Source: a virus
DNA: 64,000 nucleotides
Virus record (IMG/VR): IMGVR_UViG_3300042540_000949
Location: 1 to 64,000 of that record
Direction: 5' to 3' (one strand)
In this document: positions 392 through 60,753 of the stretch, one piece after another
Layout of the letters: each line of letters opens with the position of its first letter
Position numbering within the stretch: position 1 is the stretch's first letter
The notes under the pieces: model-generated
The model's input: only the letters and a program-made list of their open reading frames with translations
Told to the model about the DNA's origin: nothing
Databases searched by the model: none
Translations under genes and position numbers: made by a program

Positions 392-1036
392 TTATCCTCC
401 CAAAAACCAAATTAATTCAAAAGGATCTGCTGCTGAAGCACTAGAAGCAATCGTAAGAGTGTTTCCAGATGTAGTTATGGTTATATTGCTTCCTTGAGCG
501 AGGCCAACATTTCCACTTAAACCATTCAAAGTTATTACATAACTTCCAACTGGTCCAGTAACTCCTTGTGGACCCGTTGGACCAGTGAAACCAGTAGATC
601 CAATAGGACCTTGAATTCCCTGTGGACCTTGATCACCAGTGAAACCAGTAGGTCCAATAGGACCTTGAATTCCCTGTGGACCTTGATCACCAGTGGGGCC
701 AATAGGACCTTGAATTCCCTGTGGACCTTGATCACCAGTGAAACCAGTAGGTCCAATAGGACCTTGAATTCCCTGTGGACCTTGATCACCAGTAGGACCA
801 GTTGGTCCCATGGCACCAGTTCCCGTATAACTTATTGTTATATTATTAGAAGATCCGGAAACACCAATAAATGTGCTTCCAAGAATATTAATGCTTCCTG
901 TAAATCCATTTAAAAATGTAACTGCATTCGCTGCTGTTGCATACACATCCCAAGCAGTTCCATTCCACTGCCAAGAACGACCACCAAAGGTGTAAATATA
1001 ACCGAATGTGGGAGATGTTGGAAAATCTAGAGGCAT
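392..1036 (-). CDS. Collagen-like (Gly-X-Y) virion fibre/decoration protein
   Basis: Continuous [15 protein letters not shown] triplets; TATAAATA late promoter 7 nt upstream. Confidence 0.8.
580..795. repeat. Four near-identical tandem 45/54-bp repeats encoding [15 protein letters not shown](GFT)
   Basis: ccaataggaccttgaattccctgtggaccttgatcaccagt recurs four times. Confidence 0.9.
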
Positions 1037-1043
1037 GTCTTAA

Positions 1044-1051
1044 TATTTATA
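1044..1051 (-). promoter_or_regulatory. T4-type late promoter TATAAATA
   Basis: Exact consensus upstream of the collagen gene; gp55 and gp33 are encoded in the window. Confidence 0.7.
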
Positions 1052-2282
1052 TGATTTCAAACCAAGAAAGATCTGTATAACCTTGTGTGTTATCTGTCGT
1101 AGGAACCAGTACGAGAACAAATGTATCGCTTACTCCCAGTTGTGTTCTTCCTATTTGAAAATTAAAATCATTTATGCTAGATACATCCAAGGTTCCGCTG
1201 CTACTTATATATCCACCGACAATATCAGTCCCACCAGTAACCCCTGTAGCCGTAATATTATATTGAACATTTCCATTGTAATGTGTTGTCCAAGTGTTTC
1301 CCGTTAAAGTTGGATTTAATAAAATTCTGTATTGCACTACTAATGGTTTGTTGCTTCCTGACGGTTCTATTGCCACACTAATATTTGACGGCACAATAAT
1401 ACTATCCAATCTATCGGGGGCCAATCGTATTGCAACCAGTGGATATTGAGTTCCTGCTGTTGTTAAAGTATGGGGTGTAGTTCCACTATGTGTTATATTA
1501 TATCTTCTGCTGAATCCTTCATATCCACCTTCAGACAATATCGTTGAGCAAATTTGTTTCATGGTACTGCTTGTTGCTTGGCTAGAAGTATTTTCAATTT
1601 CATATCTCAAAGGCAAACATGCAGTTGTCATATAGGTTGTGGAATTTTTATTCGTATTGTAGAATGTATGTGCTACAATGGGTTTTCCGTCTATAAAAAA
1701 TCCAGTTCGAACATCACCCACACCCAACCATTCGACATCCATCCAAAAAATATTTCCTTTTGTTACATCTAAAGTTACACCAGAAGAACCAGATCCATCA
1801 AATCGATCACTGTTCCAGTTTGATTGTGGTACTGTCTGTGTGGTATTTAACGAAGCCGAAGCCAAGCAAATAGATAAAGTAAGACCATCTTGTTGCAAAT
1901 ATACTCCATTGTATGGAGTTGCGGCGGTAACGCCACCAGTAACTCCGAAGTAACCAACTCTTTGTCTCAAACCATTTTTTGGTTGAGACATTGCAAATGT
2001 GTTTATTATTGTAAGAGACTTTCCTGGTTGATATGGAAATACCTTTTTTGTTTCAGAATACAGTTTGGATCCCACTGTCAGTCCTGAAGTTAATGATACT
2101 GTGCTTTCTGTCATATTATAAGAATATGTTCCGCCAGTTGCACCTCTGTAATCCCATTTGTCACTTACTTGGTATCTTTGTTGACTGTCAAACAAGGTAA
2201 AAGGATTGCTAACTTTTAGACGATTGAATGCATCAACTGCATTTCCCTTGAATCCGATTTGATCATTGAATAGGTATGACAT
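1047..2282 (-). CDS. Conserved phage virion structural protein (beta-rich)
   Basis: DAFNRLKVSNPFTLFDSQ and YQPGKS motifs typical of aquatic T4-like virion proteins; start at 2282 (MSYLFND) preferred over 2297. Confidence 0.55.
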   Translation of the reverse strand: MSYLFNDQIGFKGNAVDAFNRLKVSNPFTLFDSQQRYQVSDKWDYRGATGGTYSYNMTESTVSLTSGLTVGSKLYSETKKVFPYQPGKSLTIINTFAMSQPKNGLRQRVGYFGVTGGVTAATPYNGVYLQQDGLTLSICLASASLNTTQTVPQSNWNSDRFDGSGSSGVTLDVTKGNIFWMDVEWLGVGDVRTGFFIDGKPIVAHTFYNTNKNSTTYMTTACLPLRYEIENTSSQATSSTMKQICSTILSEGGYEGFSRRYNITHSGTTPHTLTTAGTQYPLVAIRLAPDRLDSIIVPSNISVAIEPSGSNKPLVVQYRILLNPTLTGNTWTTHYNGNVQYNITATGVTGGTDIVGGYISSSGTLDVSSINDFNFQIGRTQLGVSDTFVLVLVPTTDNTQGYTDLSWFEII

Positions 2283-4327
2283 TATATTATTCTCCATCCA
2301 TTTCTGTAAATGAAATGTAAGCCCCCATTGTTTATGTTTAATATTGCAGAAGATTGATTATCAATTGTTTGTGATGAGGTTGCACCAACAATTGTTATAT
2401 ATCTGCTTGCTCCACTTCCCGCATTGCCAGATTCATCCTTGACAACAATTTGTCTTCCTGTTTCTGGATTTGTTGGAAGTGTAATAGTAACTGGACCACC
2501 ATAACTCACACCAATGTAATAATCCAATGGTGTTGCTGAATATGAAGAGCCCGTGACGGAAGTTGTGGTGAGAATTGATGATACACCACCAGAAGTTGTT
2601 GCTGTATTTGTTGGTTGGACCCATTGAGAACCGTTTCCATCATTGATGTAAACATACTCAATACCATTGTCAGAATCCATCCACCTGTCGCCTTGGGTTA
2701 TTCCGGATGGTGATGCAGACTGATAATAAAATCTATTTGCTGCTGAAGATTGTGTTGAGCCATCAGCAAATGCTATAAAAGCTCCTGTTGTAGTTCCAAT
2801 CACCAATCCCTTTGGAATTTCAAGGTTTTGAGTTGTTGTGTCTAATTTAAAATTTGCTTGTGCAGCTAATCTCGCTGTACTTGAATCTCTATATTGAACT
2901 GAACCACCAATAGATTTTGGTAGATCGGTAACTTCAATTTTTAAAACACCAATTCCACTAGAAGGATCTATTGTTAGACTTCCATTTGGAGATGCAATAG
3001 ATTGAACATAATTGCCTACTGGTCCTGTTGGACCTTGAGCACCAGTGGGACCTTGAGGACCAGTAGGACCTTGAGAACCACCTCCTCCACCCCCACACAA
3101 TCCACTCAAATCAATGTCAACATTTTTTCTTCTTCTTGTGATAGTGATTCCAGAACCAATGAAGTTCATGGTATCGACAGAACGAAGAATCTTGTCACCG
3201 TTCAGAGCAACATCAACTGCACCACCACCACCGGGTGTTGCCATTGCAATTTGATTGATTGCCTTTTGAACATCATCATTCTTGAGTTTGTCAAGAACAG
3301 AAGAAACGTGTTCAGAGTTGAACGAAAGAACACCATCTTCCAAGATTAATGGAAACTGTGCTTCTACAATTCCGGGATCGCCCTTGGGACCAGCAGGACC
3401 TTGAGAACCAGCAGGACCTTGTGTTCCCTTTGGACCAATTGGACCTTGTTGGCCGATTGGTCCACGTTCTCCACGATCACCCTTCTCTCCTTGGTCGCCC
3501 TTTGGTCCTTGTGGACCCATCGGACCTTGCAGACCCATATCACCTTGCTCACCTTTTTCTCCGGGAACACCCTTGGGTCCTTGAGGGCCTTGCAAACCGC
3601 GTGGGCCAACAGGACCAACTGGTCCTTCCTCGCCCTGATCTCCCTTTTCTCCTTGAGGACCAACAGGACCTTCAGGACCAACTTCTCCCTGTGGCCCAAC
3701 AGGACCTTTAGGACCAACAGGACCTTGAGGACCAGCAGGACCTCTTTCTCCTCTTGGGCCGACAGGACCGGGTTCACCTTGAATTCCTTGTGCACCAAAT
3801 TGAGGTACTATTTCTCTGACAATTGTTTTTTCAACCAATTGAACTGGCTGTTGAACAACTGGTTGAGAAACAATTTTTGGTGTTTCTACAATCTCTTCTA
3901 CGATGTTTTTTATTTGTGAAGGATTTCCAATAAATTTTACAATCTTATTGGTTTTTTGTTGTATGAAATATCTTTCAGAAACACCATGTCCCAGATATAT
4001 TTTTTCATCTGGGTGTACTGAATTTGTTTCCTTGAGAAGAGTATTCTTTTGAAGAGAACCAACAGGAAGTCTCAGACGAAATGAAGGCCCTTCAACATTC
4101 TCAAAGATGTATACGGGAATCAAAAGTTCTTTGATCTTTGAAGAGTTTCCTTCAACTACAAATTCTTGTCCGTCTTTGTCTTTCAACAATACTTTGGTAA
4201 TACCAACGCCAACAGATACCTTTGTGGGATTTCTTACCGAGTCTACAATTTGATATTCACAACCTTCCACAAGTATTGGGTGTGGTCTTGAAAGTCTTAA
4301 AGATGTCTTGTTCTTTCCAAAGAACAT
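2282..4327 (-). CDS. Collagen-like multidomain fibre protein
   Basis: Long Gly-X-Y tract (about 3370-3800), GDRW-x-DSDNG motif, C-terminal TITLP...[11 protein letters not shown] fibre domain; CTAAATA at 4337-4343. Confidence 0.75.
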
Positions 4328-4345: not shown

Positions 4346-6694
4346 TTATTCTTGGTAAGTGCTCAAACTCTTGAGATCCAATGCTGCGCCATTTAGATAG
4401 GTTATTTTTTTGATCACGCCATTGTAAAAATTAAAACCTTGTGCTGCGGTGGATGCGCCTTTGTATCCAATGGAGAAGAAACAAGCACCACAGATTCCGA
4501 ATTGTGTTCTGTCAATTGTGATGCCTTCTGTGTTACTTCCGTTGATTGAGGCACATACACCCATGATCGAATCACTAAAATTAAAGTAACTCAATGCAAT
4601 AATTGAATTTTTGACTGTATTAAGATTTATATTGGAACCAAAATTATAAGAAATGCCATTGTTGTGTGATATAAATCTATAACCACACATGCCCATTACA
4701 CGCTCAACTGCAAAACCATTGGTGCTTCCGGGTGCGTAGTTAATGGAAAACAGAGTTCTTACATTTCCTTGTGTGTGTATCGTATTGTCTTGCAACGAAT
4801 TATCTACAAGGGCGACAAAGGTGCCACTTGTTGCAGAAAACCAAGAAGAAAAAGATACACCATCCATGAACAGTCTGTCGGGGCTTCTTGTAACTGAAGA
4901 ACCAACAGTTTTGATGTAAGAAGAATCTGTAGTTTGATTTTCTAATTGAATATCTGCAACTAAAATTCCTGTACCTTCATAACCCGCTGCAGTAAAGCCC
5001 ACATTATAATTTGTAAAATTATTTGTAACATATATTCTAATACTATTATTGACACTTTCTTTATTAGTATAAGTAAATGTAATTTTTTTCCAATCATCGG
5101 GATAAGATGTAATTTTTCCTACAGGTCTTGGAATTGCTGCAAAACGGGAATCAATGTCAAATCTGTTTTCTGCTAAATCACATGTAATGGTACACGCTTG
5201 ATCTACCATTTGTATGGCCAAATACAGTGGTTCTTCTAAGCTATAATTTTTGGCCCAAATTGAAATTGTTGAAGATTGTCCGATTGTTCCAAGTGGTGGA
5301 GGGAAAAGGCCAGGATTAGAAGAAATATAGTGTTGTATGTTTCCTGAACCAATTGGGGTTAAGCGAAGAACATTATTTTCTCCAAATAAATCTGTTCCAT
5401 TGCAAGATCCCGTGATAACATCTAAAGATGAGGGACTAGTTGATTGCCAAAAACTTCCAGAATCATAAAAAGTTTCCAAAGAAGGCAATAAATTTGAAGA
5501 ACTACCTTCAACCAACAGACCTGCCAGATCTTCAATGTTTCCGTTCGAATTCAAATAGTAAGCAATTCTTGGAATATCTTGCTGTACATACGTCAATCCC
5601 GCATCATTTAAATATGATGCACTGCTTCCACGAAGGAATGTCAAGTAGTTTGTAAAATCAGCAGGCAACAATCTAAAATCAAATGTGATGCCAGTCAAAT
5701 TTCCCGTAACTGGTGTCAAGGCAAGTTGTTTCCAGCCTTGATTGGTTTTTATGTAAAGATTGTTGTCATCCCAGCACATTACACCCGGTGAGCCCTCTAC
5801 GAATGGATCAACTATTGTCTGTGGTTGTTCAATTCTTATTATCTTGTTTTTTACGTTAAGGGAAGCCACACCATCATCTAATTCCAAAAGCCCTTGCAAT
5901 TTGGTTTTTGTGGTAGAATTGTTCCCAATTACCGTTGTATTATTTCCAAGACCTTCTATTGCAGTGCCAATTATTATTTCATTAAAAGAAGTGGTATTCA
6001 GTGGTTTTGTACTATTTCCTATAAAAATTCCATTATTTACGTCTGTTACCTCTAGTCTAGTGGAACTGCAAGTTCCAGCAAGAGTTCCAATCGCAACAAC
6101 ATTTGTTCCTGAGTTTAAATTTTCTAAAGCTCTTCTACCTATTCCAACTATGTTAGTTCCTTGAATTGTTTTTGTTAAATTAGTGTCTCCAAGTGAAATT
6201 ACATTGTTTAAATTACTAATTGACGGACTAGACACATTAGTTGTAGATCCAATAATTATATTTGAACCCGTTGCTCTTATCACATAATTTGAAAATCTTA
6301 ACCCTGAACCTTCGGTGAGGGTTATTCCTTTGGTCGATATTCCATTGGAAAATTCCTGAGGTTGAGAAAATGATTGCGAAACATTAGTTCTAGCAACATT
6401 TGTCAAACCAAATGCCACAGTGTTTCCGGAAGTTTGAATGTTAATATTACTGTCACCGAAAAGACCAACAACCCCGCGAAGATTGTTTATGCTGGATACA
6501 ACATTTGTTATGCCAATTGATATTGTATTGGCTACACTTTGAACAACTACCCCAGTGTTTCCCGACAAACTCACATTTCCAATCAAACCATTGAGAGAAG
6601 ATACGCTTGCTGGTATGCTGACGGCAATTGAACCGTCAAGCACTTGAACTTGGTTTGGTGGTGTAGTTGTGACGGTGATCTGTGGGTTGCTCAT
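4346..6694 (-). CDS. Tail/head fibre or spike-like protein
   Basis: V-SS-x-N-x-L-x-G-x-V repeats, beta-helix-like segment, GLLVEGSSSNLL and QLE...SSYIKT...VTRSPD motifs of phage spike/lectin modules. Confidence 0.6.
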   Translation of the reverse strand: MSNPQITVTTTPPNQVQVLDGSIAVSIPASVSSLNGLIGNVSLSGNTGVVVQSVANTISIGITNVVSSINNLRGVVGLFGDSNINIQTSGNTVAFGLTNVARTNVSQSFSQPQEFSNGISTKGITLTEGSGLRFSNYVIRATGSNIIIGSTTNVSSPSISNLNNVISLGDTNLTKTIQGTNIVGIGRRALENLNSGTNVVAIGTLAGTCSSTRLEVTDVNNGIFIGNSTKPLNTTSFNEIIIGTAIEGLGNNTTVIGNNSTTKTKLQGLLELDDGVASLNVKNKIIRIEQPQTIVDPFVEGSPGVMCWDDNNLYIKTNQGWKQLALTPVTGNLTGITFDFRLLPADFTNYLTFLRGSSASYLNDAGLTYVQQDIPRIAYYLNSNGNIEDLAGLLVEGSSSNLLPSLETFYDSGSFWQSTSPSSLDVITGSCNGTDLFGENNVLRLTPIGSGNIQHYISSNPGLFPPPLGTIGQSSTISIWAKNYSLEEPLYLAIQMVDQACTITCDLAENRFDIDSRFAAIPRPVGKITSYPDDWKKITFTYTNKESVNNSIRIYVTNNFTNYNVGFTAAGYEGTGILVADIQLENQTTDSSYIKTVGSSVTRSPDRLFMDGVSFSSWFSATSGTFVALVDNSLQDNTIHTQGNVRTLFSINYAPGSTNGFAVERVMGMCGYRFISHNNGISYNFGSNINLNTVKNSIIALSYFNFSDSIMGVCASINGSNTEGITIDRTQFGICGACFFSIGYKGASTAAQGFNFYNGVIKKITYLNGAALDLKSLSTYQE

Positions 6695-6695
6695 T

Positions 6696-7085
6696 TTATC
6701 CTCTTGTTACGTCAGGCAAGACAGTGATATTCCCACTCATGAGTGTATCAATGTCTCCCGTGTTTTTTTGTTCCTGTATGTCATAAAATACTTTGGTATA
6801 TGGTGGAAATTTTGCCGTGTCATCGGCACCTACGCACACAACAACGTTTCCAACGGCATTGGCGGAAATTCCGCCACACACACCGCCCGGAATTGTCATG
6901 ACGCTTCCAGCCGTTATGCCTGCTTCATAGGAAGCAAATAATTTTGATGGCCACTGTCCGTTACGAACCTGCATTTTCAAGGTCGAACCAGTCAAATCAT
7001 ATGTTCCCCCCGATGAATTTCGGAGAAACATAGTCCAACGGAGGGTATCGCCTCTTATTACAGTAGGATCATAAGAGTCAGCCAT
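6696..7085 (-). CDS. BppU-like/Ig-like virion accessory protein
   Basis: RGDT...YDLTGSTLKMQVR...YDIQ...TLMSGNITV pattern; TATAAATA at 7094-7101. Confidence 0.5.
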   Translation of the reverse strand: MADSYDPTVIRGDTLRWTMFLRNSSGGTYDLTGSTLKMQVRNGQWPSKLFASYEAGITAGSVMTIPGGVCGGISANAVGNVVVCVGADDTAKFPPYTKVFYDIQEQKNTGDIDTLMSGNITVLPDVTRG

Positions 7086-7096
7086 TACTGAAATAT

Positions 7097-8320
7097 TTAT
7101 AATTTCACTGTGGCTGCATTTGGACTTACGTTCAACGTGGTCTTATTGGATTCCTTGGCAATCTTTTCAGCCCATTGCTTTTGCTGCTGTTCCAAGTTCA
7201 TTTGGAACTGCTGAAATGCCTTACTGTAGATGTTCATGTTGTTTTGAACTCTTTCACGATGCTCCGCTGGTAGATAAGGCTCGTTTAGGAGCTTTTGACA
7301 GCATTGCATTCCCAACTGGGGCATTCCTGCATAGAAAGCCGTGGTTCCGATCTCGTCAAAGATGCCCCACAGATAATTGGCATTGTCAACGAATAAAATG
7401 TCATTCTGTGGAACTGGAATATGAGCGCCTAGGTGTGCAATCAAGAAAGCATTCCTTGGACGATTGTACTTTCTGTAGATGCAGGATAGATGGTATAGTG
7501 GCTCTACACGATTTGGTGCAGATTCAAACGCCATCATGAATGCATCGGCAATCTGTTCGACTGGCTTTCCTTGGAACTCTCGGCACATTCCGACACGCAT
7601 CCAAGAAAAGAATACTTCTTCGTGCCAACCACCCTGTTCGATTCTCTTGAGGTATTCCTTTTCCGCAATCTCAAACATTCTTGCGTCAAAGGCAGACTGT
7701 GCTGCATAGAATTGCTTGCGAGGCTGATTTGGATCCTTCTCCAAATATCCCTTAAGAATGTAATAATCCTTGGTATACTTTTCAATGTCGTTGGAAACAG
7801 ATCGTGAACGGCAACCTTCGGTACGAACTTCCCATGCATAGTCACCCTCAAGTTTGCCAACATTCATTGGCTGCTCGCAGATGGCATATTCATGCAGAGG
7901 CTCTTCGTACCACCACTTTTTCTTGCCCAAGTTGAAGATCTGGGCACGAAGCCACTTGAACTCTCCGCGCTTGATCTGGACTACATAACCGTCAAGATTG
8001 TCATCAAACTTATCGACAGGAAGAGTTCCCGTGATAAAGTCATCAGCATCGATCATCAGAGCCCATTTAGTCTTGCCCATGCAAAGTTCAAGAGCCTTTG
8101 AGCGATTGGTTCCAAAATCAGACCATTCGTGGTCGTGGATCTCACCGGGAATACCCTTTTCATCAAAGAACTTCTTGATGATCTCCTTGGTATTGTCCGT
8201 TGATCCGGTATCACAGATTACATAGTAATCAATGAAAGGTGCGCATGAAGCCAAGCAACGCTCAATGTTTGGGGCTTCGTTCTTTACGATCATACTCAAA
8301 GTCAACTTGTGCATATTCAT
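7097..8320 (-). CDS. GT2 glycosyltransferase with C-terminal TPR-like repeats (SunS/flagellin-GT architecture)
   Basis: MIVKNE...ERCL...DTGSTD, DADD (DxD), LHE, then helical repeats (FYAAQS, APNRVEPLYHL). Confidence 0.85.
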   Translation of the reverse strand: MNMHKLTLSMIVKNEAPNIERCLASCAPFIDYYVICDTGSTDNTKEIIKKFFDEKGIPGEIHDHEWSDFGTNRSKALELCMGKTKWALMIDADDFITGTLPVDKFDDNLDGYVVQIKRGEFKWLRAQIFNLGKKKWWYEEPLHEYAICEQPMNVGKLEGDYAWEVRTEGCRSRSVSNDIEKYTKDYYILKGYLEKDPNQPRKQFYAAQSAFDARMFEIAEKEYLKRIEQGGWHEEVFFSWMRVGMCREFQGKPVEQIADAFMMAFESAPNRVEPLYHLSCIYRKYNRPRNAFLIAHLGAHIPVPQNDILFVDNANYLWGIFDEIGTTAFYAGMPQLGMQCCQKLLNEPYLPAEHRERVQNNMNIYSKAFQQFQMNLEQQQKQWAEKIAKESNKTTLNVSPNAATVKL

Positions 8321-8322
8321 CC

Positions 8323-8760
8323 TTATGTATTGAAAAACTTACGAAGAGATCCAGGATTGAACTTGGGAATCAATTCCCATTGTTCTTTCTCTGTATATTT
8401 AATTATCTTTAAACCAGATAGGGGCATTCGGTCTTTTACTTTTTCCTTGTCAACAATTTCCAGAAGTTCCCATTCTTCCAGCAATTTTATGATTGCGTTT
8501 CTTCTCTTGATGTCTTCTTCCGAGACATTTGATGGAAGGCCATCCAAGGCAAAAAGTTCTTTGAAATGGGCAACGATGTAGCATTCATTCTTGTGAATCA
8601 GGTGACAAGATTGATACAATACTTTCTTGCCCTTTGGAGACACGCCGATTCGTGACAAAGTTTCACGAACAACCATGAAATCTTCTGGGTCGAATAAAGT
8701 TACATGAACGCCTACATTATTGAATATTTTATCGGATACATCTGACATAACTGCTTTCAC
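8323..8760 (-). CDS. regA: Translational repressor RegA
   Basis: DFMVVRETLSRIGV...LYQSCHLIHK...YIVAHFKELFALDG; follows gp62. Confidence 0.95.
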   Translation of the reverse strand: MKAVMSDVSDKIFNNVGVHVTLFDPEDFMVVRETLSRIGVSPKGKKVLYQSCHLIHKNECYIVAHFKELFALDGLPSNVSEEDIKRRNAIIKLLEEWELLEIVDKEKVKDRMPLSGLKIIKYTEKEQWELIPKFNPGSLRKFFNT

Positions 8761-8762
8761 TC

Positions 8763-9146
8763 CTACTTACCAGTTCCACCTTTGTTTAGATATGCTTTTA
8801 AATTGTCTATATCTGTTGTACTAAGGATATTTAGTACTTCTCTGGCTTTCATGTCGTTGTATCCAAAAACCTCTTTAATTACCGTAATATTTTCTTCGGT
8901 ATCCTTGCGTATCCAATGAGAGAAACGCTTCTTTTTTCTTACAGATAGTCTGTAAAAATCAAACTGGGATTTGGAATCAAGCCACGGGTGACAATTCATC
9001 TCGTTTGCATGAAACAATGTATCTGGAAAGTATGACAAGCATTTATTGACGACAAAAGCTGGATAAAGACGAACATCCTTTTCGTCCTTGTCCAGCAGCG
9101 CTTTCTTGTCGTGATTTATGCTGTTCAAAAAGTCTTTTAATTCCAT
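8763..9146 (-). CDS. gp62: Clamp loader small subunit (gp62)
   Basis: YPAFVVNKCLSYFPDT...ANEMN...RKKKRFS; synteny. Confidence 0.93.
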   Translation of the reverse strand: MELKDFLNSINHDKKALLDKDEKDVRLYPAFVVNKCLSYFPDTLFHANEMNCHPWLDSKSQFDFYRLSVRKKKRFSHWIRKDTEENITVIKEVFGYNDMKAREVLNILSTTDIDNLKAYLNKGGTGK

Positions 9147-10090
9147 CAGTTAAACTCACAATCCATCATGATCTGTACGATCAATGCCATTGTATTGATT
9201 TCTTGGTCTGATGCAAAAGCTGCTTTGTATTGATACTCAGCAACAATTAAAATTGCTTGTGGAACTGAATTTGGTTTCAAGACTGTATATAGTTCCGTAT
9301 AAAGTCGCTTGAAAAACTCTGTCGTATTCAGATCCAGATTCTGTACAACCCACTTTCTGCATGAAGTAAAGTCCTTGTTCTTCATGAATCCAATGAGTTC
9401 CTTGTACGATTCACTGCTGCCTTGAGCAAGAATGCCAACATCAATCTTTCCAGAACTTGAATACTTCTGGAGTTCATTGATGATTCTTCGCATGTCAGGA
9501 AAATGCTTCTTGACAAGATTGACCAAGACCGCTTTTTCATATGGAACCTTTTCCGTTGTCAGAATATGTTCCACACGACCAAGCATTGCAGATGCAATTT
9601 GTGCTTTTTCTGCATTGGGAATCGTGAAATCAATCCCAGTACATCTGGAATGCAAAGGTTCAATGACGCGATTCTTGTAATTGCAAGTCAGTATGAATCG
9701 GCAGTTCTTGTGGAATTCCTCTATGGCTCCACGCAATGCTGGCTGAATTGACTGAGGATTTGCATAGTCAAACTCATCAAGCACTACTATCTTGTGATTT
9801 CCATTCAGCGATACTGTTGATGCGTATTGACGAATCTTGGTTCTCAGCGTATCAATTCCATTTTCTTCCGAGCAGTTGATGAGAATGTATTCTGAACCAA
9901 CATCCTTTGCCAAGGCACGGGCAACCGTAGTCTTGCCCGTGCCTGCCTTTCCATAAAGAAGCATGTTGGGAACAGATCCCTCTTTTACCATTCCCTCAAA
10001 GATCTTTTTTAGATCTATTGGAAGAATGCAATCAGACAGCGTTTGTGGGCGGTATGATTCCACCCACAACATATCACGTATATCAGTCAC
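9146..10090 (-). CDS. gp44: Clamp loader AAA+ subunit (gp44)
   Basis: LWVESYRP, Walker A GKAGTGKT, LDEFD, SRC motif. Confidence 0.96.
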   Translation of the reverse strand: MTDIRDMLWVESYRPQTLSDCILPIDLKKIFEGMVKEGSVPNMLLYGKAGTGKTTVARALAKDVGSEYILINCSEENGIDTLRTKIRQYASTVSLNGNHKIVVLDEFDYANPQSIQPALRGAIEEFHKNCRFILTCNYKNRVIEPLHSRCTGIDFTIPNAEKAQIASAMLGRVEHILTTEKVPYEKAVLVNLVKKHFPDMRRIINELQKYSSSGKIDVGILAQGSSESYKELIGFMKNKDFTSCRKWVVQNLDLNTTEFFKRLYTELYTVLKPNSVPQAILIVAEYQYKAAFASDQEINTMALIVQIMMDCEFN

Positions 10091-10092
10091 TT

Positions 10093-10764
10093 TTATCCCT
10101 TGTTGATTGCGATGTAATAAGTAATGTCTTGGGAACTGTGTGTGAACCTAGAAACCACGGTATCCGTGACTTCTACTTTATAGGAACCTGGAAGGAACTT
10201 AATCTCGTTGATTGAGATGTTTCCTTCATAATCAGGACCACTATAGTTTTCCTCAACCACAATTTCAAAACTATCGGATGTGCTGTTGGAGGAATCATCG
10301 ACAGTAAGGCGAATCTGACCGTCACCAGCAATGATCTTCAGATCACTGACCTGAAGGATGCTAGCAGCCTTCATCACTTCACTAAGATCCTGCTCATCAA
10401 GATTGAATGAGAAGAGAACTTCAGGCATGTTGATGTCCTTGGTGGGAACAGTCAACAGGGACTTCTCTGCGTAATAATACTTTACGCTTGAACGCCCGTT
10501 GGAGATGTCAACATGCGTGTCATGGAACTCAAGATCGGGATTGTTGAACATGCTGACCACACCTAGAAACTTGTTGAGATCCCAGATGGAAATTTCGGTG
10601 TCAAAATCCTCCTGAACGGTGGCCTTGACATAGATGTTGCTTCCTGCCGAACGAGTCTTCAGCACATTCCCAGGTTTGATGAGAATGTTTGAATTGATGG
10701 AGGAGAAGTTTTTTAGAATGTTAAATGTTTCTTTGCTCAAACGCATTTTTGTCACAGTACTCAT
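10093..10764 (-). CDS. gp45: Sliding clamp (gp45)
   Basis: LSKETFNILKNFSSINSNI...IWDLNKFL...YYIA; synteny. Confidence 0.95.
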   Translation of the reverse strand: MSTVTKMRLSKETFNILKNFSSINSNILIKPGNVLKTRSAGSNIYVKATVQEDFDTEISIWDLNKFLGVVSMFNNPDLEFHDTHVDISNGRSSVKYYYAEKSLLTVPTKDINMPEVLFSFNLDEQDLSEVMKAASILQVSDLKIIAGDGQIRLTVDDSSNSTSDSFEIVVEENYSGPDYEGNISINEIKFLPGSYKVEVTDTVVSRFTHSSQDITYYIAINKG

Positions 10765-10781
10765 ATAGATCCTTTTGTAGA

Positions 10782-10934
10782 TTATTCTTCGTCACGACGA
10801 TACATCATATCATTCACCTGCTGCTTGCTTTCATGGCGATTGCCCCGCTTCTGCCTTTTCTCTTGCTTGCGGCTCAATCCGTTTTTCTTATTCTTGCGGC
10901 GATTAGTGAATTTCTCAAAACTGTCTTCATTCAT
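10782..10934 (-). CDS. Small very basic hypothetical protein (50 aa; absent from the ORF track)
   Basis: MNEDSFEKFTNRRKNKKNGLSRKQEKRQKRGNRHESKQQVNDMMYRRDEE*; promoter 6 nt upstream. Confidence 0.65.
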   Translation of the reverse strand: MNEDSFEKFTNRRKNKKNGLSRKQEKRQKRGNRHESKQQVNDMMYRRDEE

Positions 10935-10940
10935 GGTGAT

Positions 10941-10968
10941 ATTATAACTCCTGTTTTTTGCAAATCAA
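10941..10968 (-). promoter_or_regulatory. Sigma70-like promoter TTGATT-N16-TATAAT
   Basis: Hexamers and 16-nt spacer counted from sequence. Confidence 0.6.
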
Positions 10969-11249: not shown

Positions 11250-11259
11250 TCAATAATAT

Positions 11260-47712: not shown

Positions 47713-47715
47713 TAC

Positions 47716-51734: not shown

Positions 51735-51763
51735 AAAAAAAGCCCCCTTTCGGGGGCTTTTTT
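51735..51763. terminator. Bidirectional rho-independent terminator
   Basis: AAAAAAGCCCCC-TTTC-GGGGGCTTTTTT between convergent genes. Confidence 0.9.
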
Positions 51764-52620
51764 CAATCGTTCTCCATTTCGGAGAAGTACTGCAGAGGAT
51801 CTTTCTCTTCAACATTTTCCACAACTGAAGATTCCTCCACATCGTCTTCGATGCTCTTGGACTCAGTAAACTGAGCGCGAATATCGTCACCGACAGACTT
51901 CTTGAACCTAGCGTTCAGTTCATCAAAGCTCTTGAACTGGCTCTTGTCCACAAACGGCTTGAGGGGATATTGCTTCTTCCATAGTTCCTCAAGTTTCTTG
52001 TCATCACCACCAAGAAGTGGTGCAGGGGTTGCAAACTCGCTGCGATCATAGTTTACATACCCACCGACATTACGGATCTTGATCTTAAAATCCGCACCTG
52101 TCCAGAAGTTGAACGGATCAACCGCAACCTCATCCTGAAACTCGGGATGGGCGAGGCTCTGAATCTTCTGGAAGATCTTCGTTCCATACTGGTAGAGGAA
52201 GACCTTGCCCTTGTTCTCGGGGTTTGCAGGATCTTCAACGACCAAGATATTGGAAATATAGGTCAACTTGCGCTTTCTCTGACGAGCAATGTTCTTGTCG
52301 TCTTCGATACCACTGTTCCACAGTTCTGTGTTTGCGGCACAGACTGGGCATTTCTCGCCAATCGTAGTAGGGCAGTTCTCGTAGAACCACCCACCCTTGC
52401 CCTTAAAGGTGTGGCTATAGACAGCCACGAAGGGAGTCTCCTCTCCTTCGACTTCGGGAAGAAAGCGGATAACAGCGTATCCGTTTCCAGCCTTGTCGAT
52501 TCCCGGCTTCCAAATCCGTTCATCCTTGTAACTTTCCTTTGCGTTCATCTTCTCCAAACGCTCAGAAAGTTGTGCGACCGAGTTCTTACTCTTCTTTTTA
52601 AAATCTGAAAAATTTCCCAT
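51763..52620 (-). CDS. gp32: Single-stranded DNA-binding protein (gp32)
   Basis: DERIWKP..DKAGNGYAVIRFLP, ENCPTTIGEKCPVC, NYDRSEF, acidic tail. Confidence 0.97.
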   Translation of the reverse strand: MGNFSDFKKKSKNSVAQLSERLEKMNAKESYKDERIWKPGIDKAGNGYAVIRFLPEVEGEETPFVAVYSHTFKGKGGWFYENCPTTIGEKCPVCAANTELWNSGIEDDKNIARQRKRKLTYISNILVVEDPANPENKGKVFLYQYGTKIFQKIQSLAHPEFQDEVAVDPFNFWTGADFKIKIRNVGGYVNYDRSEFATPAPLLGGDDKKLEELWKKQYPLKPFVDKSQFKSFDELNARFKKSVGDDIRAQFTESKSIEDDVEESSVVENVEEKDPLQYFSEMEND

Positions 52621-52693: not shown

Positions 52694-52919
52694 CTGGAAG
52701 TTTTTTGTTTTTGTTTTTTTTCAATAGATGCAAATTTTTGGCTTCCTGTTCAATCTTCTCAACAAGAGGCTTTGTCAAAAGTTTGCCAGCAGCAATAGGA
52801 TCAAGACTCATTTCATCTGCCAGTTCAAGTACACAATCCATAAACGACAGATTGGTGCTTAAAGTTCGCTCTATCACCTTGTTTGAAAATTTTTCCTTTG
52901 CTGTGTCGTCTATATACAT
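52686..52919 (-). CDS. gp33: Late promoter co-activator (gp33)
   Basis: FSNKV...SFMDCVL...KLLTKPLVEKIEQEAKNLHLL..KLP; promoter TTGCTT-N16-TATAGT at 52926-52953. Confidence 0.88.
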   Translation of the reverse strand: MYIDDTAKEKFSNKVIERTLSTNLSFMDCVLELADEMSLDPIAAGKLLTKPLVEKIEQEAKNLHLLKKNKNKKLPVD

Positions 52920-53008
52920 GTTTATACTATATGTCGAATTAATAAAAAAGCAATAATTGAATCCATCTAAATATTCTAGAACTATTTATACCACTTTAAG
53001 GAACAAAA

Positions 53009-53992
53009 ATGGCATTTGACTCAGACCCAAACGTATTAATTGAATCAGGTGGAAACACCTTCAATGTAGCAACAGACGCAATTGTGTTCTCTGGGGCAAC
53101 CTCTCACTTCCAATACATGAAGTTGGCATATGGGCCTACTGGCTCCGTATCCATCGTAAGCAACTCCAACGGTCTTCCTGTCAGTGTTATTGGAGGAGGT
53201 ATTACAGCCAATCTAGTGGGCTTCTGTGGGGCCGTACAAGGTATTCCCGGTGGAACTCCGGTAACCGTGAGTGGAACCGTATATGCAACAGGAATCACAT
53301 CTGCACCTGTTTATGTCAGAACTTCAAGTGGTTATCAAGTAGAAATTACAGGTGGGACACCGCTATCAAGAACCAAGGATTCTATTTCTGTTTGGGGTCC
53401 AAATGGCATAACTTATGTTTATGCTAATTTTGTAGATTCAACTGGAACAGAAAAAGGAACTGTAAGTAATCCTTTTTATACCAATATAATTGGTGCAACA
53501 ATTAATGTAACAGTAAATCCAACTGTTGGTGTAACAAACGACTCTCCAAATAATGGTCTGCGTGTTCAAGGGATGAGCGGTGGTGATAATGTCCGAGTAC
53601 AAGTTCAAAATACTGTTACAGTCAACGACACAAATATTCTTTCTAGTCTTTCAGGAATATGCGCCGCAATCGGGGCATTGAATACTAATCTTTCAACTGT
53701 TGGGGCAGCAAGACCTACAACAATAAAGACTGGTAGAGTTTCTTCAGTTTTTTCAACTCCTCAACAAATTGATTCATCTGGATTTACTTGCCAAAGTGGA
53801 ATTAATTTCAAAGCACTTTCAACAAATACAGATTTTGTCTATCTTGGAAATACCGCCACATCTTCAGCACTCATTGCTAACGGAATTGCTTTGGATCCGG
53901 GCGACCAAGTATTCGTGTCAATAACCAATACAAATAACTTCTACATGGTTGCTGCAAGCGGAACACAAACAATAACTTACATGGCTTCGTGA
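53009..53992 (+). CDS. Hypothetical virion protein, G-x-T rich
   Basis: HFQYMKLAYG, NGLPV, C-terminal KALSTNTDFVYLG...LDPGD; CTAAATA at 52967-52973. Confidence 0.55.
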   Translation: MAFDSDPNVLIESGGNTFNVATDAIVFSGATSHFQYMKLAYGPTGSVSIVSNSNGLPVSVIGGGITANLVGFCGAVQGIPGGTPVTVSGTVYATGITSAPVYVRTSSGYQVEITGGTPLSRTKDSISVWGPNGITYVYANFVDSTGTEKGTVSNPFYTNIIGATINVTVNPTVGVTNDSPNNGLRVQGMSGGDNVRVQVQNTVTVNDTNILSSLSGICAAIGALNTNLSTVGAARPTTIKTGRVSSVFSTPQQIDSSGFTCQSGINFKALSTNTDFVYLGNTATSSALIANGIALDPGDQVFVSITNTNNFYMVAASGTQTITYMAS

Positions 53993-53993: not shown

Positions 53994-55292
53994 ATGCCTT
54001 TTAATAATACCCTTAACAATGTAAGAACATATAAAAATTATGGCCTCATTGTTGAAGGCAACACTTATGATCCAATTTTTACAAAAGGTTGGATTCAATC
54101 ATCCCCAAACATTTTAATTAATGGTCAAACATGTTATTTGGATTATTCACATTCATATGACACTTCTGATGTTGTTTATTTAAAAAGAACCTTTGGAAAA
54201 ATTGCAGTAGGAAATACCTTTTACTTTCAAGATACAAATTATTTTGATCCAAAAACCGATAATAAATTCAATCTAGGTGGAACATTAACTTTTCAAAGCA
54301 CACTAAACAATGGAAAAATTGTAATTGCAAATATTGTTTCTGGAATGACACCCGGAACAAATTATAATTTTTTTGACAAAGAAAACTTTTTAAAATCACC
54401 ACAGTATACATTTACTAATACAACAGGATATACAGCAAATTATATTTTAAATAGTTTACCAAATGTAACCCATACAAGTTTTAAAACCATGGGAATTTTG
54501 GGAAATGAGTTGGGCTTTGAGGAATACATAGATTTTTCCGGTGCTACTGGAATTAACTATGGAAGATTACAGGTTTCCGGAACAGTCACACTAAAAGATG
54601 AACAAGAATTATTGTATATCTTGAGTGGCGTTACATCACAATCATTGATTAATAATACAACTTTGATTAAACATTATATTCGTGGTTCATCAAGTGTAGA
54701 GGAAATACAACAACCAGAAAGTGTTTTAGGTATTTACAGAATTCATGATGAATCAAATAAATTAATAGAATGTTATGAAAATCAAAATTATTATCAAACT
54801 TTTTTAAGAAAACAAATTTTAGGTTCTACTTACTCTGGTTACTGGGTACAATGTGAAACTTGTCCGAATGACATTTATGGAGAAAATATTTCTACAGATG
54901 GAGTTCAGTCAAATTTATTATTTGATAATAACGTATTTTTGTTTATCAATCAAATATCAAGAAATGTCGCTACAAGTATAATACCAACAACTTCTTACGG
55001 AGTCTTTACACAAAGACTCTTAACTGGAACTCCACAAAGCGCCTCAAGACTTTCTTTTTCTGTTTCAGTCGGTCTCAAAATAGATTTGAGCCATGCATCA
55101 TTGCAGGGGTGGGATTTTCAAATTTATATCGATCCAAACTATACCATTCCTCTTACTACAAGCATGTATATATCAGGTAAACCTGGATACGATCAATCGT
55201 ATGTATTGATCAAAAATAATCAAGATGTTCCCAGAACACTTTATTGTAAATTAGTAGGATTTACAACTCTTACTATGGTATTCAACATTTAA
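53994..55292 (+). CDS. Hypothetical protein (probably virion)
   Basis: 432-aa ORF directly after 53009-53992. Confidence 0.5.
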   Translation: MPFNNTLNNVRTYKNYGLIVEGNTYDPIFTKGWIQSSPNILINGQTCYLDYSHSYDTSDVVYLKRTFGKIAVGNTFYFQDTNYFDPKTDNKFNLGGTLTFQSTLNNGKIVIANIVSGMTPGTNYNFFDKENFLKSPQYTFTNTTGYTANYILNSLPNVTHTSFKTMGILGNELGFEEYIDFSGATGINYGRLQVSGTVTLKDEQELLYILSGVTSQSLINNTTLIKHYIRGSSSVEEIQQPESVLGIYRIHDESNKLIECYENQNYYQTFLRKQILGSTYSGYWVQCETCPNDIYGENISTDGVQSNLLFDNNVFLFINQISRNVATSIIPTTSYGVFTQRLLTGTPQSASRLSFSVSVGLKIDLSHASLQGWDFQIYIDPNYTIPLTTSMYISGKPGYDQSYVLIKNNQDVPRTLYCKLVGFTTLTMVFNI

Positions 55293-57548: not shown

Positions 57549-57555
57549 ATAATTC

Positions 57556-60500
57556 TTACGTTAATGTTATTGTGCAAGTTTGTGAACCATCATAATCATC
57601 ATACATTTCAGGGCAAATAAATCCATCCGAACAGATCCAACATCTTGGATTTACCATTGTTACGTTTGGATTTTCCTCAAATTGTTGCAAAGTTCTCCAA
57701 GTTCTAACCACATTTCTTTCAATAACTTCACATGGACCCGGAACAGGATCGCATGCATATGACAGTGGACGAGCCAAACCACATCCACTTTGTCCCCAAG
57801 CCATACATGGTTGTTCTACACAACATTTTGGTAAAGGTTTTCCTTGATAATATACTGTGATAGAATGTAACTGGGAAGCAAAATATACAATCATTTCTTC
57901 TCTTTGAATAATCTTATTTCCTTGTGGTATAAAAGATGTATTATATTCAGCAGAAATAAAAACATCACCCGGAATATTATTGTCCAAACTTCTTTTTCCA
58001 CCAATCCAATAACTGTCTGGTCCTAATTGTGTTGCAACATATTTGCCACCAGAATATTGATTGAGTTTTTGAACATAAGTACTTAACCGACACCCTGCTG
58101 CAATAATTCGTGGACCTTCATTAGAAGGTTCTCCTGTATCATTTTCACAACCCGGTCCAAAGTCTCCATATTCTCTATAAATTGGTATATATCCTGCCGG
58201 AATTGAACTATATGGTACACAACCAGGATTATCTGGATCAACTACAACACATTCAGCCACAATAGAATAACCAGGATCTCTAAATGTTCTTTCATTTATT
58301 GCTGAAGCATCTGGTATTCCCGTTATATCTGGGACTATTCCACATGAAGCAATATAATCAAAACAACCCTCAGCCCACCCAGAACCTGCTAAACCACCAA
58401 TACCAGCCGAGCCTTCATTATTAAATGAAAAATTATTTCCAAAATTATCTATTGGAAATGGGCAGTATAAAAAGAAAGTCGGAGAACCGGGTGTAGTTGG
58501 TGGATTAAAACATCCAGGTACTGGTGGTAAGTCACAATTTCCACTATCTCTGGATTCTGTATATGTTCCAGTATTGGGATCTAAATAAGTCACATTATAA
58601 GAAGCACTGTCACTATAGGAGCCATCAAAATCACAATCACATAGTTCAATTTTGTTACAACCAGCATCAAATGGTAATCTACCATTAAAAGAAATGCTTA
58701 CATCAACTGTAGCCCTGTATGGTGATGTTCCACTCCAATATTCACGAACTTCCACGCAACAATTTGGAGGATTTCCTTGGCCACCAGTATTGTTTTCAGG
58801 ATTTGTTCCACCTTCTTGATTTTCACAATCATTGTTTTGTGGTCCATCGCCAAATGGATTAGAACAAGAATCACATGGATTTTCTAATATTACTTCTCCT
58901 ATCGAACCTCTGTTATAAAATTGATCACCAAAAGGTTCCCATAAAGAAGTTTTCCAAACTAAGTAGTACCAATTGTCTTTCTTTGTATAAAATATGTCTG
59001 GATAATCATCTGGATTTTGACAAGAAATAAATGGTTCGGGACAAATTTGAACAGGTTGGCAAGGACAATTGTTTACGTTAAAGCAATTAATTATTTTGTC
59101 ATCTTCATTTGTAATTTCGCATATAGGCAGAGCATACAAACCTTTGCAACAATCCGCATAAGGTCTGCAACCAATATCTGTAAATACTGCATCCTCGGGA
59201 ACCAAGTAGTCGGGATCACACAAAACACCACACTGATAAGAAAGATAATACAATTCTCCGTCATACTTAAATGTTCTGTATTTTACTTCTTGAACTTCTC
59301 CTGTTGGTGTTTCGTTTGGTAAAGTAAAACCAGAAGGACCACAAGATCCACAGACACCAGTGCAAACAAATGCACCAACCCAAGCACCACCACACCCTCC
59401 ACCGATTGGAAAGTCTTTTGCAGGACCCGAACTACCTCTATTTACTGCTCCCGTTGTACCCCTTCCATCTATAACTGTATCAAATCCAATTAAAGACGAT
59501 CCACCACACGGATAATAACCAGATGCACCACATGAACCACATGTTCCGCAACAATTGTTTATTTTATCACAGATATATCCAGCCTGCTCATCAGTCAAAC
59601 AAATATAGGTTTTATCTGGAATCTCTGAAAGAGATTCATTACAGGGACATCGTAATGCAGCAAATTGAATGGCAATTTTTCCGGGCATTCCATTTTCTGA
59701 ATTATTTTTAGGAACATAACCAACCACTCCATTTATTTGCTCCAACCCCCCAATGCTTGAAACATCAGTGGTCCAATACATAGGATCACACATATTTGGT
59801 GGACCATTATCAGTTCCTGACCTTGCCAAAGGATCTATGGTGCTGCTTCCACCACCTCCACCAAATCCCGTTTTTCCTCCACCTCCACCACCTCTCAATC
59901 CACCGCCACCACCACCGCCACCAACAATAGATCCACGTCCACCACTAGATACTATTCCACTTTGGGCACCACATCCACCACAACCACCCTGTGTTTGATT
60001 TCCACCAAATCCCCCATCTGGTCCGTTTGCTTTTTTTCCTGCAGTAACTCCACCATGACCTCCACCACTGCTGTCGTTTCCTGCACCACCACCTCCACCA
60101 GCAATTAAAAATGCACTTTGTGGTTGCATCATATTCTCAGAAACAAAAGCAGCACCACCACCCCATGAACCAAATCCTTGTCCACCACCACCGGGGACGG
60201 TGGAAATATTTCCAGTCCATCCAGTTACGCTTCTGGTGGTATTTGCACCCAATCCACCAAAGCCAACACAGGCAACATAATTTTTATTGTATGGTCCTCT
60301 TTTTTGGGTATACGCTCCATTGCCTCCGGGAAGGTTTATGATTTTTCCACCACCCCCAGCACCCCATGCTTTGTAAAGCAATCCTCTTTCTTCATCTAAA
60401 ATTAAATCATAACATTTTTGCTGAATGCAGCCACCAAATCCACCATTGTAACTACCAAATGCACCTCCAGAACTTTGATCAGCACAACTTATTCCTTTAA

Positions 60501-60753
60501 TTTTAATTGGAACACTTGTATAACCAAAATCAAAATCTGGAAAGGGAAAATATGGATGCAATATACCAAAAGGACCACAAATCCCTAAAGCAGGATTGTT
60601 TTTTAAAAGTTGTTCTATTTGGGACATTGAGGCATTACCAGCAAAACCAGTAAAGCCATCGTCATTATAACCACCAAAAAATTTAGTACCCCAATATCTA
60701 CAGGGTATTGCTATCCAATGTCCTTTACCACAACAACAAGCTTTTGTTGGCAT
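57556..60753 (-). CDS. Large Cys- and Gly-rich late protein (putative virion/adhesin)
   Basis: MPTKACCC start, glycine-rich domain (WGAGGGG...GGGGAG...GGGGGS), many Cys clusters; TATAAATA at 60778-60785. Confidence 0.6.
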   Translation of the reverse strand: MPTKACCCGKGHWIAIPCRYWGTKFFGGYNDDGFTGFAGNASMSQIEQLLKNNPALGICGPFGILHPYFPFPDFDFGYTSVPIKIKGISCADQSSGGAFGSYNGGFGGCIQQKCYDLILDEERGLLYKAWGAGGGGKIINLPGGNGAYTQKRGPYNKNYVACVGFGGLGANTTRSVTGWTGNISTVPGGGGQGFGSWGGGAAFVSENMMQPQSAFLIAGGGGGAGNDSSGGGHGGVTAGKKANGPDGGFGGNQTQGGCGGCGAQSGIVSSGGRGSIVGGGGGGGGLRGGGGGGKTGFGGGGGSSTIDPLARSGTDNGPPNMCDPMYWTTDVSSIGGLEQINGVVGYVPKNNSENGMPGKIAIQFAALRCPCNESLSEIPDKTYICLTDEQAGYICDKINNCCGTCGSCGASGYYPCGGSSLIGFDTVIDGRGTTGAVNRGSSGPAKDFPIGGGCGGAWVGAFVCTGVCGSCGPSGFTLPNETPTGEVQEVKYRTFKYDGELYYLSYQCGVLCDPDYLVPEDAVFTDIGCRPYADCCKGLYALPICEITNEDDKIINCFNVNNCPCQPVQICPEPFISCQNPDDYPDIFYTKKDNWYYLVWKTSLWEPFGDQFYNRGSIGEVILENPCDSCSNPFGDGPQNNDCENQEGGTNPENNTGGQGNPPNCCVEVREYWSGTSPYRATVDVSISFNGRLPFDAGCNKIELCDCDFDGSYSDSASYNVTYLDPNTGTYTESRDSGNCDLPPVPGCFNPPTTPGSPTFFLYCPFPIDNFGNNFSFNNEGSAGIGGLAGSGWAEGCFDYIASCGIVPDITGIPDASAINERTFRDPGYSIVAECVVVDPDNPGCVPYSSIPAGYIPIYREYGDFGPGCENDTGEPSNEGPRIIAAGCRLSTYVQKLNQYSGGKYVATQLGPDSYWIGGKRSLDNNIPGDVFISAEYNTSFIPQGNKIIQREEMIVYFASQLHSITVYYQGKPLPKCCVEQPCMAWGQSGCGLARPLSYACDPVPGPCEVIERNVVRTWRTLQQFEENPNVTMVNPRCWICSDGFICPEMYDDYDGSQTCTITLT

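Follow-up and report, generated by a model that had tools for sequence, protein, structure and literature searches.

The phage contig IMGVR_UViG_3300042540_000949 encodes a glycosyltransferase (GT) of the type that modifies threonine in collagen-like repeats, directly beside genes for threonine-rich fibres. Together with an excess of Gly-x-Thr (G-x-T) motifs in outer proteins of the particle, this indicates that the phage probably coats its virion with sugars. The stretch analysed (positions 1 to 64,000 of this IMG/VR record, hereafter the window) belongs to a partial 79-kb contig of an uncultured T4-like myovirus from lake water. An earlier note on this DNA had proposed that G-x-[T/S/C] is a glycosylation site in the structural proteins, primed by a SunS-like GT2-TPR enzyme and extended by the enzymes of a sugar island, and this interpretation is partly supported here. 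In the reading preferred below, for which we see about an even chance, a cytoplasmic GT glycosylates Thr in the fibres and probably at other G-x-T sites of the virion, and the island may supply and extend the sugars. Glycosylation of Thr in the collagen-like fibres appears likely, and the G-x-T sites outside collagen repeats are plausible as further acceptors. On the minus strand, the gene order is gp55-like, gp47, gp46, gp45, gp44, gp62, regA, the GT2 gene and five open reading frames (ORFs), 6696, 4346, 2282, 1047 and 392. The last six genes are as follows.

7097-8320, minus strand: putative protein glycosyltransferase, GT-A (GT2) plus TPR-like, 407 residues, soluble
6696-7085, minus strand: small structural-type protein, 129 residues, phrog_1084, by synteny always next after the GT gene
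4346-6694, minus strand: tail protein, 782 residues, phrog_5939
2282-4327, minus strand: collagen-like tail fibre, 681 residues, matching collagen-like tail fibre PHROGs with E values to 2e-42
1047-2297, minus strand: virion structural protein, phrog_1645
392-1036, minus strand: collagen-like fibre (from sequence and PHROG) with GPT, GFT and GST triplets and its own late promoter at 1044-1051

The identity of ORF 7097-8320 as a SunS-like GT2-TPR enzyme, claimed in the earlier note, is upheld by Pfam, by sequence matches in the PDB and by an AlphaFold2 (AF2) model compared with Foldseek. The Pfam family GT2 (PF00535) matches with an E value of 3e-12. On the catalytic domain, the PDB sequence matches are GmaR (4.5e-10), ThuS or ThuS-like chains (1.5e-6) and SunS (7.5e-6). 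The GmaR alignment spans only the N-terminal 90 residues; the aligned 'idaDDf' segment agrees with GmaR and the ThuS-like chains, and D91-A-D93-D94 (DxD) is invariant among 25 homologues. In the AF2 model (25 homologues, predicted local distance difference test score, pLDDT, 89), a GT-A domain of strands and helices at residues 4-164 is followed by about ten helices at 178-391, which have a pLDDT of about 90. Foldseek places SunS and ThuS first, with alignments along the full length (383-396 columns, E 8e-16 to 2e-14, 15-19% identity). TarS is the next family (2e-8), and consensus TPR proteins match too. A GT-A catalytic domain with DxD and a C-terminal TPR-like domain are thus both present, in the SunS/ThuS arrangement, and no transmembrane segment was found in the GT. 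All of its closest relatives of known structure have proteins or peptides as substrates.

Among characterised systems, SgtA and its substrate BclA3 come closest. SgtA of Clostridioides difficile consists of a GT-A domain (residues 1-260) and four TPR repeats (262-358), and its gene lies immediately upstream of bclA3 (PMC7157674). In vitro, its product is beta-O-GlcNAc on Thr within the GPT collagen repeats of BclA3; Ser can also serve as acceptor (PMC7157674). Likened by the published description, both systems have a soluble GT-A enzyme with a C-terminal TPR domain, and the enzyme gene adjoins a Gly-X-Thr-rich collagen-like gene. The present system differs in that it belongs to a lytic T4-like phage and its presumed substrates are virion fibres. 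Moreover, the motif excess reaches non-collagen virion proteins and Cys, and there is a large variable sugar island. SunS and ThuS (PDB 7MSN, 7MSK) share the GT-A and helical TPR-like domains and are the best full-length fold match; the presumed targets here are large structural proteins and not leader-less helical peptides. As for the context of a glycocin cluster, no precursor peptide, exporter or thiol-disulfide enzyme was found beside the GT, either in the window or in related loci. GmaR, the O-GlcNAc transferase of Listeria flagellin, acts in the cytoplasm on Ser/Thr in the exposed part of a filament-forming protein. It is the best PDB sequence match, on the catalytic domain, but its anti-repressor role and flagellin substrate are without counterpart here.

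Glycosylation of a phage's own particle has a precedent. According to a summary in PMC12619734 (citing Freeman et al. 2023), GTs encoded by mycobacteriophages glycosylate their own virion, at the C-termini of capsid and tail-tube subunits. As far as that summary describes them, these systems resemble the present one in that phage GTs act on the phage's own capsid and tail proteins. They differ in having C-terminal glycans in actinobacteriophages, whereas here internal G-x-T/C sites and collagen-like fibres of a T4-like myovirus would be concerned. No description of a GT-A plus TPR enzyme together with Gly-X-Thr fibres in phages was found in a literature search of incomplete coverage.

The linkage of the enzyme to collagen-like genes was followed in related phages and in bacteria. 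In the window, the ATG of the GT gene lies 2 nucleotides (nt) past the regA stop, and the GT is translationally coupled to regA. A T4-type late promoter, TATAAATA, at 7094-7101 (minus strand) stands 16 nt before ORF 6696-7085 and opens the late fibre operon; ORFs 6696 and 392 have such promoters 15-16 nt upstream, and ORF 57556 has one 32 nt upstream. A scan of IMG/VR with the GT gave 73 loci. The order regA, GT, 6696, fibres is kept in all close loci, in which the GT is 63-99% identical. Conservation of the GT is about equal to that of the adjoining replication genes; the downstream fibres and the upstream sugar block vary widely. Collagen-like ORFs occur downstream of the GT in 43 of the 50 phage loci with enough sequence, and Thr stands at Y in 43% of 2,900 triplets there (commonest GAT, GPT and GNT). 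In about 75 more distant T4-like loci, found via regA, neither the GT nor a collagen-like ORF follows regA; small genes and then a protein of about 840 residues are found instead. Outside this group, the unrelated jumbo phage Tunturi_5 has a 33% identical GT 3.7 kb from the collagen-like tail fibre gp29, in which G-x-T occurs 79 times vs 29.9 expected (z 10.8). One of three huge phages (LR756502) carries a G-x-T collagen fibre (z 6.3) 6 kb from the GT. In the IMG/VR loci L063-L066 and L068, at about 8000-11300, a 40% identical GT directly follows genes for GDP-mannose dehydratase and epimerase, and after it come small ORFs and one ORF that encodes about 840 residues.

Full-length bacterial homologues (33-39% identity) were found in Streptomyces, Mycobacterium, Burkholderiales, Polyangiaceae, Chlamydiae, Holophagaceae and others. 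Within 6 kb of the GT, 35 of 75 bacterial loci have at least 8 collagen-like triplets in a row; the rate expected near an arbitrary gene is far below 1%, by our own estimate rather than by a count at random loci. In 26 of these 35, Thr makes up at least 30% of the Y positions, and the runs are mostly 300-1,000 nt from the GT; over all bacterial runs, Y is Thr in 46%. For some of them the strand is ambiguous, since GGN-NNN-ACC gives Gly-x-Thr as its reverse complement as well. Coupling of the enzyme family to Gly-X-Thr collagen-like genes is thus seen in both phages and bacteria. The bacterial loci suggest that enzymes of the GT-A plus TPR family glycosylate Thr-collagen generally, in many phyla, with SgtA as the only member characterised so far.

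Directly upstream of the GT homologue, some bacterial loci carry three to five small genes for Thr-rich collagen-like proteins, arranged in tandem. These may be uncharacterised bacterial glyco-collagen systems.

L258, 4443-7873: gammaproteobacterial metagenome-assembled genome
L291, 3273-6518: Acidovorax facilis
L289, 729-7204: Flagellimonas ochracea

The motif itself was examined by counting, for each of the 20 amino acids, G-x-X and X-x-G in the proteins and in composition shuffles of each protein. The motif strings listed in the earlier note were all found in their ORFs. Besides the fibre operon, the following late genes are concerned; ORFs 53009, 53994, 45739 and 44940 have no match in PHROG or Pfam.

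29731-31182, minus strand: major capsid protein gp23, by similarity to cyanomyovirus gp23
36813-38096, minus strand: tail sheath (library scans), with a conserved C-terminal core
40893-41555: the 'gp14' of the earlier note
44940-48558, minus strand: three late ORFs with motif excess, 44940, 45739 and 47716
47716-48558: the 'gp53' of the earlier note
53009-53992, plus strand: fibre- or spike-like late protein
53994-55292, plus strand: late protein, no fold assigned

In 31 late ORFs, after removal of collagen runs, whole-protein shuffles gave 97 G-x-T vs 64.1 expected (1.51x, z 4.2) and 27 G-x-C vs 15.0 expected (1.80x, z 4.0), with no excess of G-x-S (1.05x) or of the reverse T-x-G (1.01x). The non-structural ORFs showed none of this (G-x-T 1.07x; G-x-C 1.29x, z 0.9; G-x-S 1.24x, z 1.5; T-x-G 1.04x), so that the G-x-T and G-x-C excess lies in the late set only, as the comparison suggested in the earlier note had anticipated. 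With shuffling in 20-residue blocks, the late ORFs gave G-x-T 1.44x (z 4.3), G-x-C 1.92x (z 4.2), G-x-S 1.00 and T-x-G 0.97. Since the excess survives the block shuffles, local composition is not its cause. The proposed G-x-[T/S/C] site stands in its Thr and Cys parts, which are enriched over shuffles, and falls in its Ser part, which is at expectation; the motif is therefore G-x-[T/C].

Two trivial sources of the excess were rejected. An artefact of local composition, namely Gly/Thr-rich segments, is ruled out by T-x-G at expectation and by block shuffles that give the same excess. Collagen repeats as the sole source are ruled out too, since the excess persists without runs of at least 4 triplets and in collagen-free proteins.

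The excess is confined to some late proteins. For G-x-T these are ORFs 392, 1047 (13 vs 5.2 expected, z 4.0), the sheath 36813 (9 vs 3.2, z 3.6), 53009 (12 vs 5.1, z 3.5) and 53994 (10 vs 3.5, z 3.9). The G-x-C excess is carried by 4346 (6 vs 0.8 expected), 45739 (8 vs 1.3) and gp23. The portal, scaffold, baseplate wedge and hub of the window show no motif excess, and only a slight one is seen in the tail-tube paralogues. The G-x-T signal of ORFs 392 and 2282 is mostly the plain collagen G-X-Y repeat with Thr at Y; ORF 2282 has a G-X-Y run at about residues 177-309 and GPT triplets at 419-433.

In related IMG/VR contigs, the region downstream of the GT supplied a larger sample of 198 non-redundant ORFs (64,499 residues), again without collagen runs. 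Shuffles of these gave G-x-T 1.75x (z 22.6), G-x-C 2.29x (z 10.2), G-x-S 1.06x and T-x-G 1.00x, and 20-residue block shuffles gave 1.66x (z 23.2), 2.16x (z 9.3), 1.02 and 0.95, respectively. The ORFs upstream of the GT had G-x-T 1.15x, G-x-C 0.92x, G-x-S 1.20x (z 3.0) and T-x-G 0.92x. The G-x-T sites of the clade have the context [S/N]-G-[I/L/V]-T-[G/L/A]; that of G-x-C is the same, with a hydrophobic x (V) and then A/G. Gly comes next at 27% of the sites, as at the boundary of a collagen triplet, and only 31 of 1,333 sites are tandem G-x-T-G-x-T. Divergent orthologues (below 70% identity to the window proteins, from two further scans) gave a pooled G-x-T ratio of 2.02x. The highest excess in the clade is that of the 6696 family, with a ratio of 3.0 (153/50.9), and ORF 53009 (2.6), ORFs 53994 and 47716 (2.2), ORF 1047 (2.1) and the sheath (2.07) follow; no excess was seen in the baseplate wedge and hub orthologues.

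The excess is restricted to the GT-bearing clade. In virion proteins of T4 (33 proteins, 14,117 residues), G-x-T stands at 1.11x, and in those of Prochlorococcus phage P-HM2 (16,599 residues) G-x-T is at 1.07x and G-x-C at 0.54x. Homologues of ORF 1047 occur in cyanophages S-RIM12, S-RIM2 and S-H38, in Puniceispirillum phage HMO-2011 and in phage DSL-LC04, and a search for the GT found no homologue in any of these five. Their 1047 proteins have no G-x-T excess (z 0.1-1.0 vs 4.0 for the window protein), and other residues or shorter loops stand at its G-x-T sites. T4, P-HM2 and the five GT-less homologues rule out the excess as a general trait of T4-type virion proteins or of the phrog_1645 fold. 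The same enrichment in relatives without the enzyme, which the earlier note had named as counting against its proposal, was thus looked for in these phages and not found.

Two of the enriched proteins were studied more closely. In the sheath, 11 of the 12 G-x-[TS] sites lie within residues 1-220, outside the conserved C-terminal core, and the sheaths of T4 and P-HM2 have G-x-T under expectation. Among the sheath orthologues, five motif columns are invariant and eleven are found in one lineage only, so fixed and floating sites coexist. In ORF 53009, the N-terminal 200 residues are rich in G-x-T, and its orthologues conserve the motif Gly at 98% and the motif Thr at 87%. Its AF2 model has a disordered-looking motif-rich N-terminal half, a helix at 207-230 and a confident C-terminal jelly-roll. 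The jelly-roll resembles the receptor-binding domain of PM2 spike P1 with a VIA Z of 8.0, a middling match among many cupin-like folds. From this model, ORF 53009 would be a fibre or spike protein. ORF 6696 shows a feature-based likeness to BppU_N clusters, which is a lead only.

Substitution among orthologues differs between Thr and Cys. Motif Thr is more conserved than the other Thr of the same proteins (0.72 vs 0.57, Mann-Whitney p 9e-4). Motif Cys is poorly conserved (0.41 vs 0.88 for other Cys, p 2e-5) and is replaced by Ser/Thr in 26% of orthologue cells vs 4.6% for other Cys (p 8e-6), a pattern that rests on 18 Cys sites. Interchange of G-x-T and G-x-C positions among orthologues, for which the earlier note had suggested an alignment, does thus take place at these 18 sites. 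In the 6696 family, the column G-[VIFS]-[C/T]-G-G-[I/L] alternates Cys and Thr, and the GLC sites of 45739 and 44940 are further examples. In gp23, three G-x-C sites fall in a hypervariable stretch aligned with the insertion of T4 gp23, where relatives have Ser instead of Cys. ThuS modifies both Cys and Ser. If the enzyme, like ThuS, took O and S acceptors, it might glycosylate the Cys of G-x-C on exposed capsid, baseplate-associated and fibre loops, yielding S-linked virion glycans. We consider this quite unlikely; such S-glycosylation is a speculation drawn from the similarity to the SunS/ThuS fold, the interchange of Cys, Ser and Thr and the G-x-C excess (1.8-2.3x). To our knowledge, no S-linked glycan has been described on a virus particle.

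Two Cys-rich late proteins deserve a separate remark. Residues 530-550 of ORF 45739-47712 form a run of Gly-Ala-Cys triplets (GSSGACGACGAGGACGACGACGG), which is gapped to differing lengths among orthologues; the Cys outside this run are 94% conserved. ORF 57556-60753 (minus strand) encodes a late protein of 1,065 residues with 16.7% Gly and 5.9% Cys, poly-Gly tracts and the CxxC-type strings GTCGSCG, GVCGSCG and GGCGGCG. It has no motif excess over shuffles, its orthologues are 27 to 95% identical and its weak PHROG match is without assigned function.

The sugars themselves may come from an island between gp55 and uvsY.

14593-25845, minus strand: low-GC sugar island (Pfam/PHROG annotation)

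It holds about 20 genes at 25-30% GC. Those for sugar modification encode GDP-mannose 4,6-dehydratase, two SDR epimerases/reductases, a short DegT-like protein, a hexapeptide acyltransferase and two methyltransferases, and the transferases are NodZ-like and GT11 fucosyltransferase-like enzymes, a GT2, a GT1-like enzyme and a GT4. All are soluble, without hydrophobic segments, and no flippase, polymerase or initiating transferase was found among the island's products. Since the GT and the island enzymes are all soluble, a cytoplasmic acceptor is to be expected, which fits stepwise assembly in the cytoplasm. The island's content differs widely between relatives. From its synteny and proximity to the GT, its variability and the solubility of its enzymes, it is a matter of speculation that these extend the glycan. 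The short DegT form (ORF 17503-18105, minus strand), aminotransferase-like, has 200 residues that match profile positions 167-237 of 360; it recurs at 57-77% identity in related loci and so is not a local truncation.

In the mechanism proposed, ORF 7097-8320 would encode a cytoplasmic GT-A plus TPR protein O-glycosyltransferase of the SgtA/GmaR/SunS kind, presumably produced along with the replication genes. It would put the first sugar on the Thr of Gly-x-Thr, chiefly in the Thr-rich collagen-like fibres encoded directly downstream. It would probably also act at G-[ILV]-T-[G/A/L] in exposed parts, namely the outer region of the sheath and ORFs 1047, 6696, 47716, 53009 and 53994. The variable sugar island may furnish nucleotide sugars and extending transferases. 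The outcome would be a glycan-decorated particle, with glycan and fibres differing between relatives.

Several observations weigh against this mechanism. The evidence is comparative throughout, and it is from comparison that we infer which substrate and sugar are used, how the glycan is extended and what biological role it has. No late promoter was found in a search before the GT gene, which is outside the late operon. In two of the three huge phages, no gene for a G-x-T protein lies closer than 20 kb to the GT, and in L063-L066, with the 40% identical GT, no fibre or motif-rich ORF lies within 10 kb. G-x-S is at expectation, although SgtA takes Ser in vitro. The x residue is mostly hydrophobic, and at several strand starts the site does not vary (6696 'tGaTl', sheath columns), a combination that would fit a structural turn-strand motif equally well. 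In the model of ORF 53009, pLDDT is below 50 for residues 1-140 and most of 156-204, so the motif-rich half is unreliable. Finally, the negative controls come from few lineages, and the co-occurrence of enzyme and motif could therefore stem from shared ancestry.

The nearest alternative is that the GT modifies only the collagen-like G-X-Thr of the fibres, as SgtA does with BclA3, and that the non-collagen excess is an unmodified structural habit of the clade. It would agree with the association across kingdoms, which is specifically with collagen-like runs, with the sole experimental precedent, which concerns collagen repeats, and with the several non-collagen sites that are invariant strand starts with hydrophobic x. 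We nevertheless regard it as rather unlikely, as the non-collagen excess is limited to the GT-bearing clade and absent from GT-less homologues, half of the motif columns in the sheath are not fixed but specific to a lineage, and Gly follows 27% of the sites, as at a collagen triplet boundary. A further possibility is that the motif is purely structural, with Thr stabilising hydroxyproline-free collagen helices or marking beta-turns and strand starts. The GT and the island would then act elsewhere, on host envelope glycans or surface proteins, blocking superinfection or keeping progeny from sticking to debris. The hydrophobic x and conserved positions would suit this, as would a GT co-transcribed with early/middle replication genes and not with the late operon, the GT of L063-L066 beside sugar genes without fibres, and an island as hypervariable as O-antigen-type loci. 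Such an explanation seems doubtful to us: no membrane-bound initiating transferase, flippase or polymerase was found, no island enzyme has a transmembrane segment, and the GT's nearest relatives of known structure act on proteins or peptides and not on lipid-linked glycans. Moreover, many bacterial phyla and unrelated phages show tight coupling of the GT family to genes for Thr-rich collagen, and the clade-specific motif excess would require a separate cause.

Modification of DNA and of secreted peptides was also considered. Phage GTs often glycosylate DNA, at times with complex glycans (PMC12619734), and the genome is T4-like, so the GTs could decorate hypermodified bases instead of proteins. 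This is very unlikely, as the GT-A plus TPR fold matches protein and peptide glycosyltransferases, and DNA glycosylation would leave both the coupling to collagen and the motif excess unexplained; the 79-kb contig showed no hydroxymethylase, a weak argument given that the contig is partial. Maturation of a secreted glycocin-type peptide, as by SunS for sublancin in the SPbeta prophage, is brought to mind by SunS/ThuS as the best fold match and by the phage-borne nature of SunS. It is highly improbable for a lytic, T4-like phage in which the GT is flanked by regA and late fibre genes, with no precursor peptide, ABC exporter or thiol-disulfide oxidoreductase beside it.

If the fibres and other G-x-T sites are indeed glycosylated, phage-encoded glycans attached at a short motif cover the fibres, and perhaps loops of the sheath and capsid, in abundant T4-like phages of fresh water. 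There would be consequences for host recognition, particle stability and shielding from proteases or host defences, and virion glycosylation would reach beyond actinobacteriophages. Both an enzyme candidate and a rule readable from sequence, G-x-T and perhaps G-x-C, would then be at hand.

As for the rest of the window, Pfam and PHROG scans gave a T4-type gene map, with the head, neck, tail and baseplate module at 29-51 kb. The best identity of gp23 is 53%, to a cyanomyovirus gp23, and megablast against phage records found no close annotated relative of the contig. Four tail-tube-like paralogues (phrog_45) lie at 29119-29658, 35730-36281, 36283-36813 and 49850-50428; T4 has gp19 and the related gp3, gp48 and gp54. 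The minus strand also has an exact TATAAATA at 52983-52990, in a gap flanked by two plus-strand ORFs (52705-52956 and 53009-53992); gp32 (51763-52620, minus strand) lies about 360 nt downstream of it. Between gp45 and gp46, ORF 10725-11228 runs on the opposite (plus) strand and encodes 167 residues with three hydrophobic segments. It is kept at 38-96% identity in most related loci and is therefore probably a genuine small membrane protein within the replication module.

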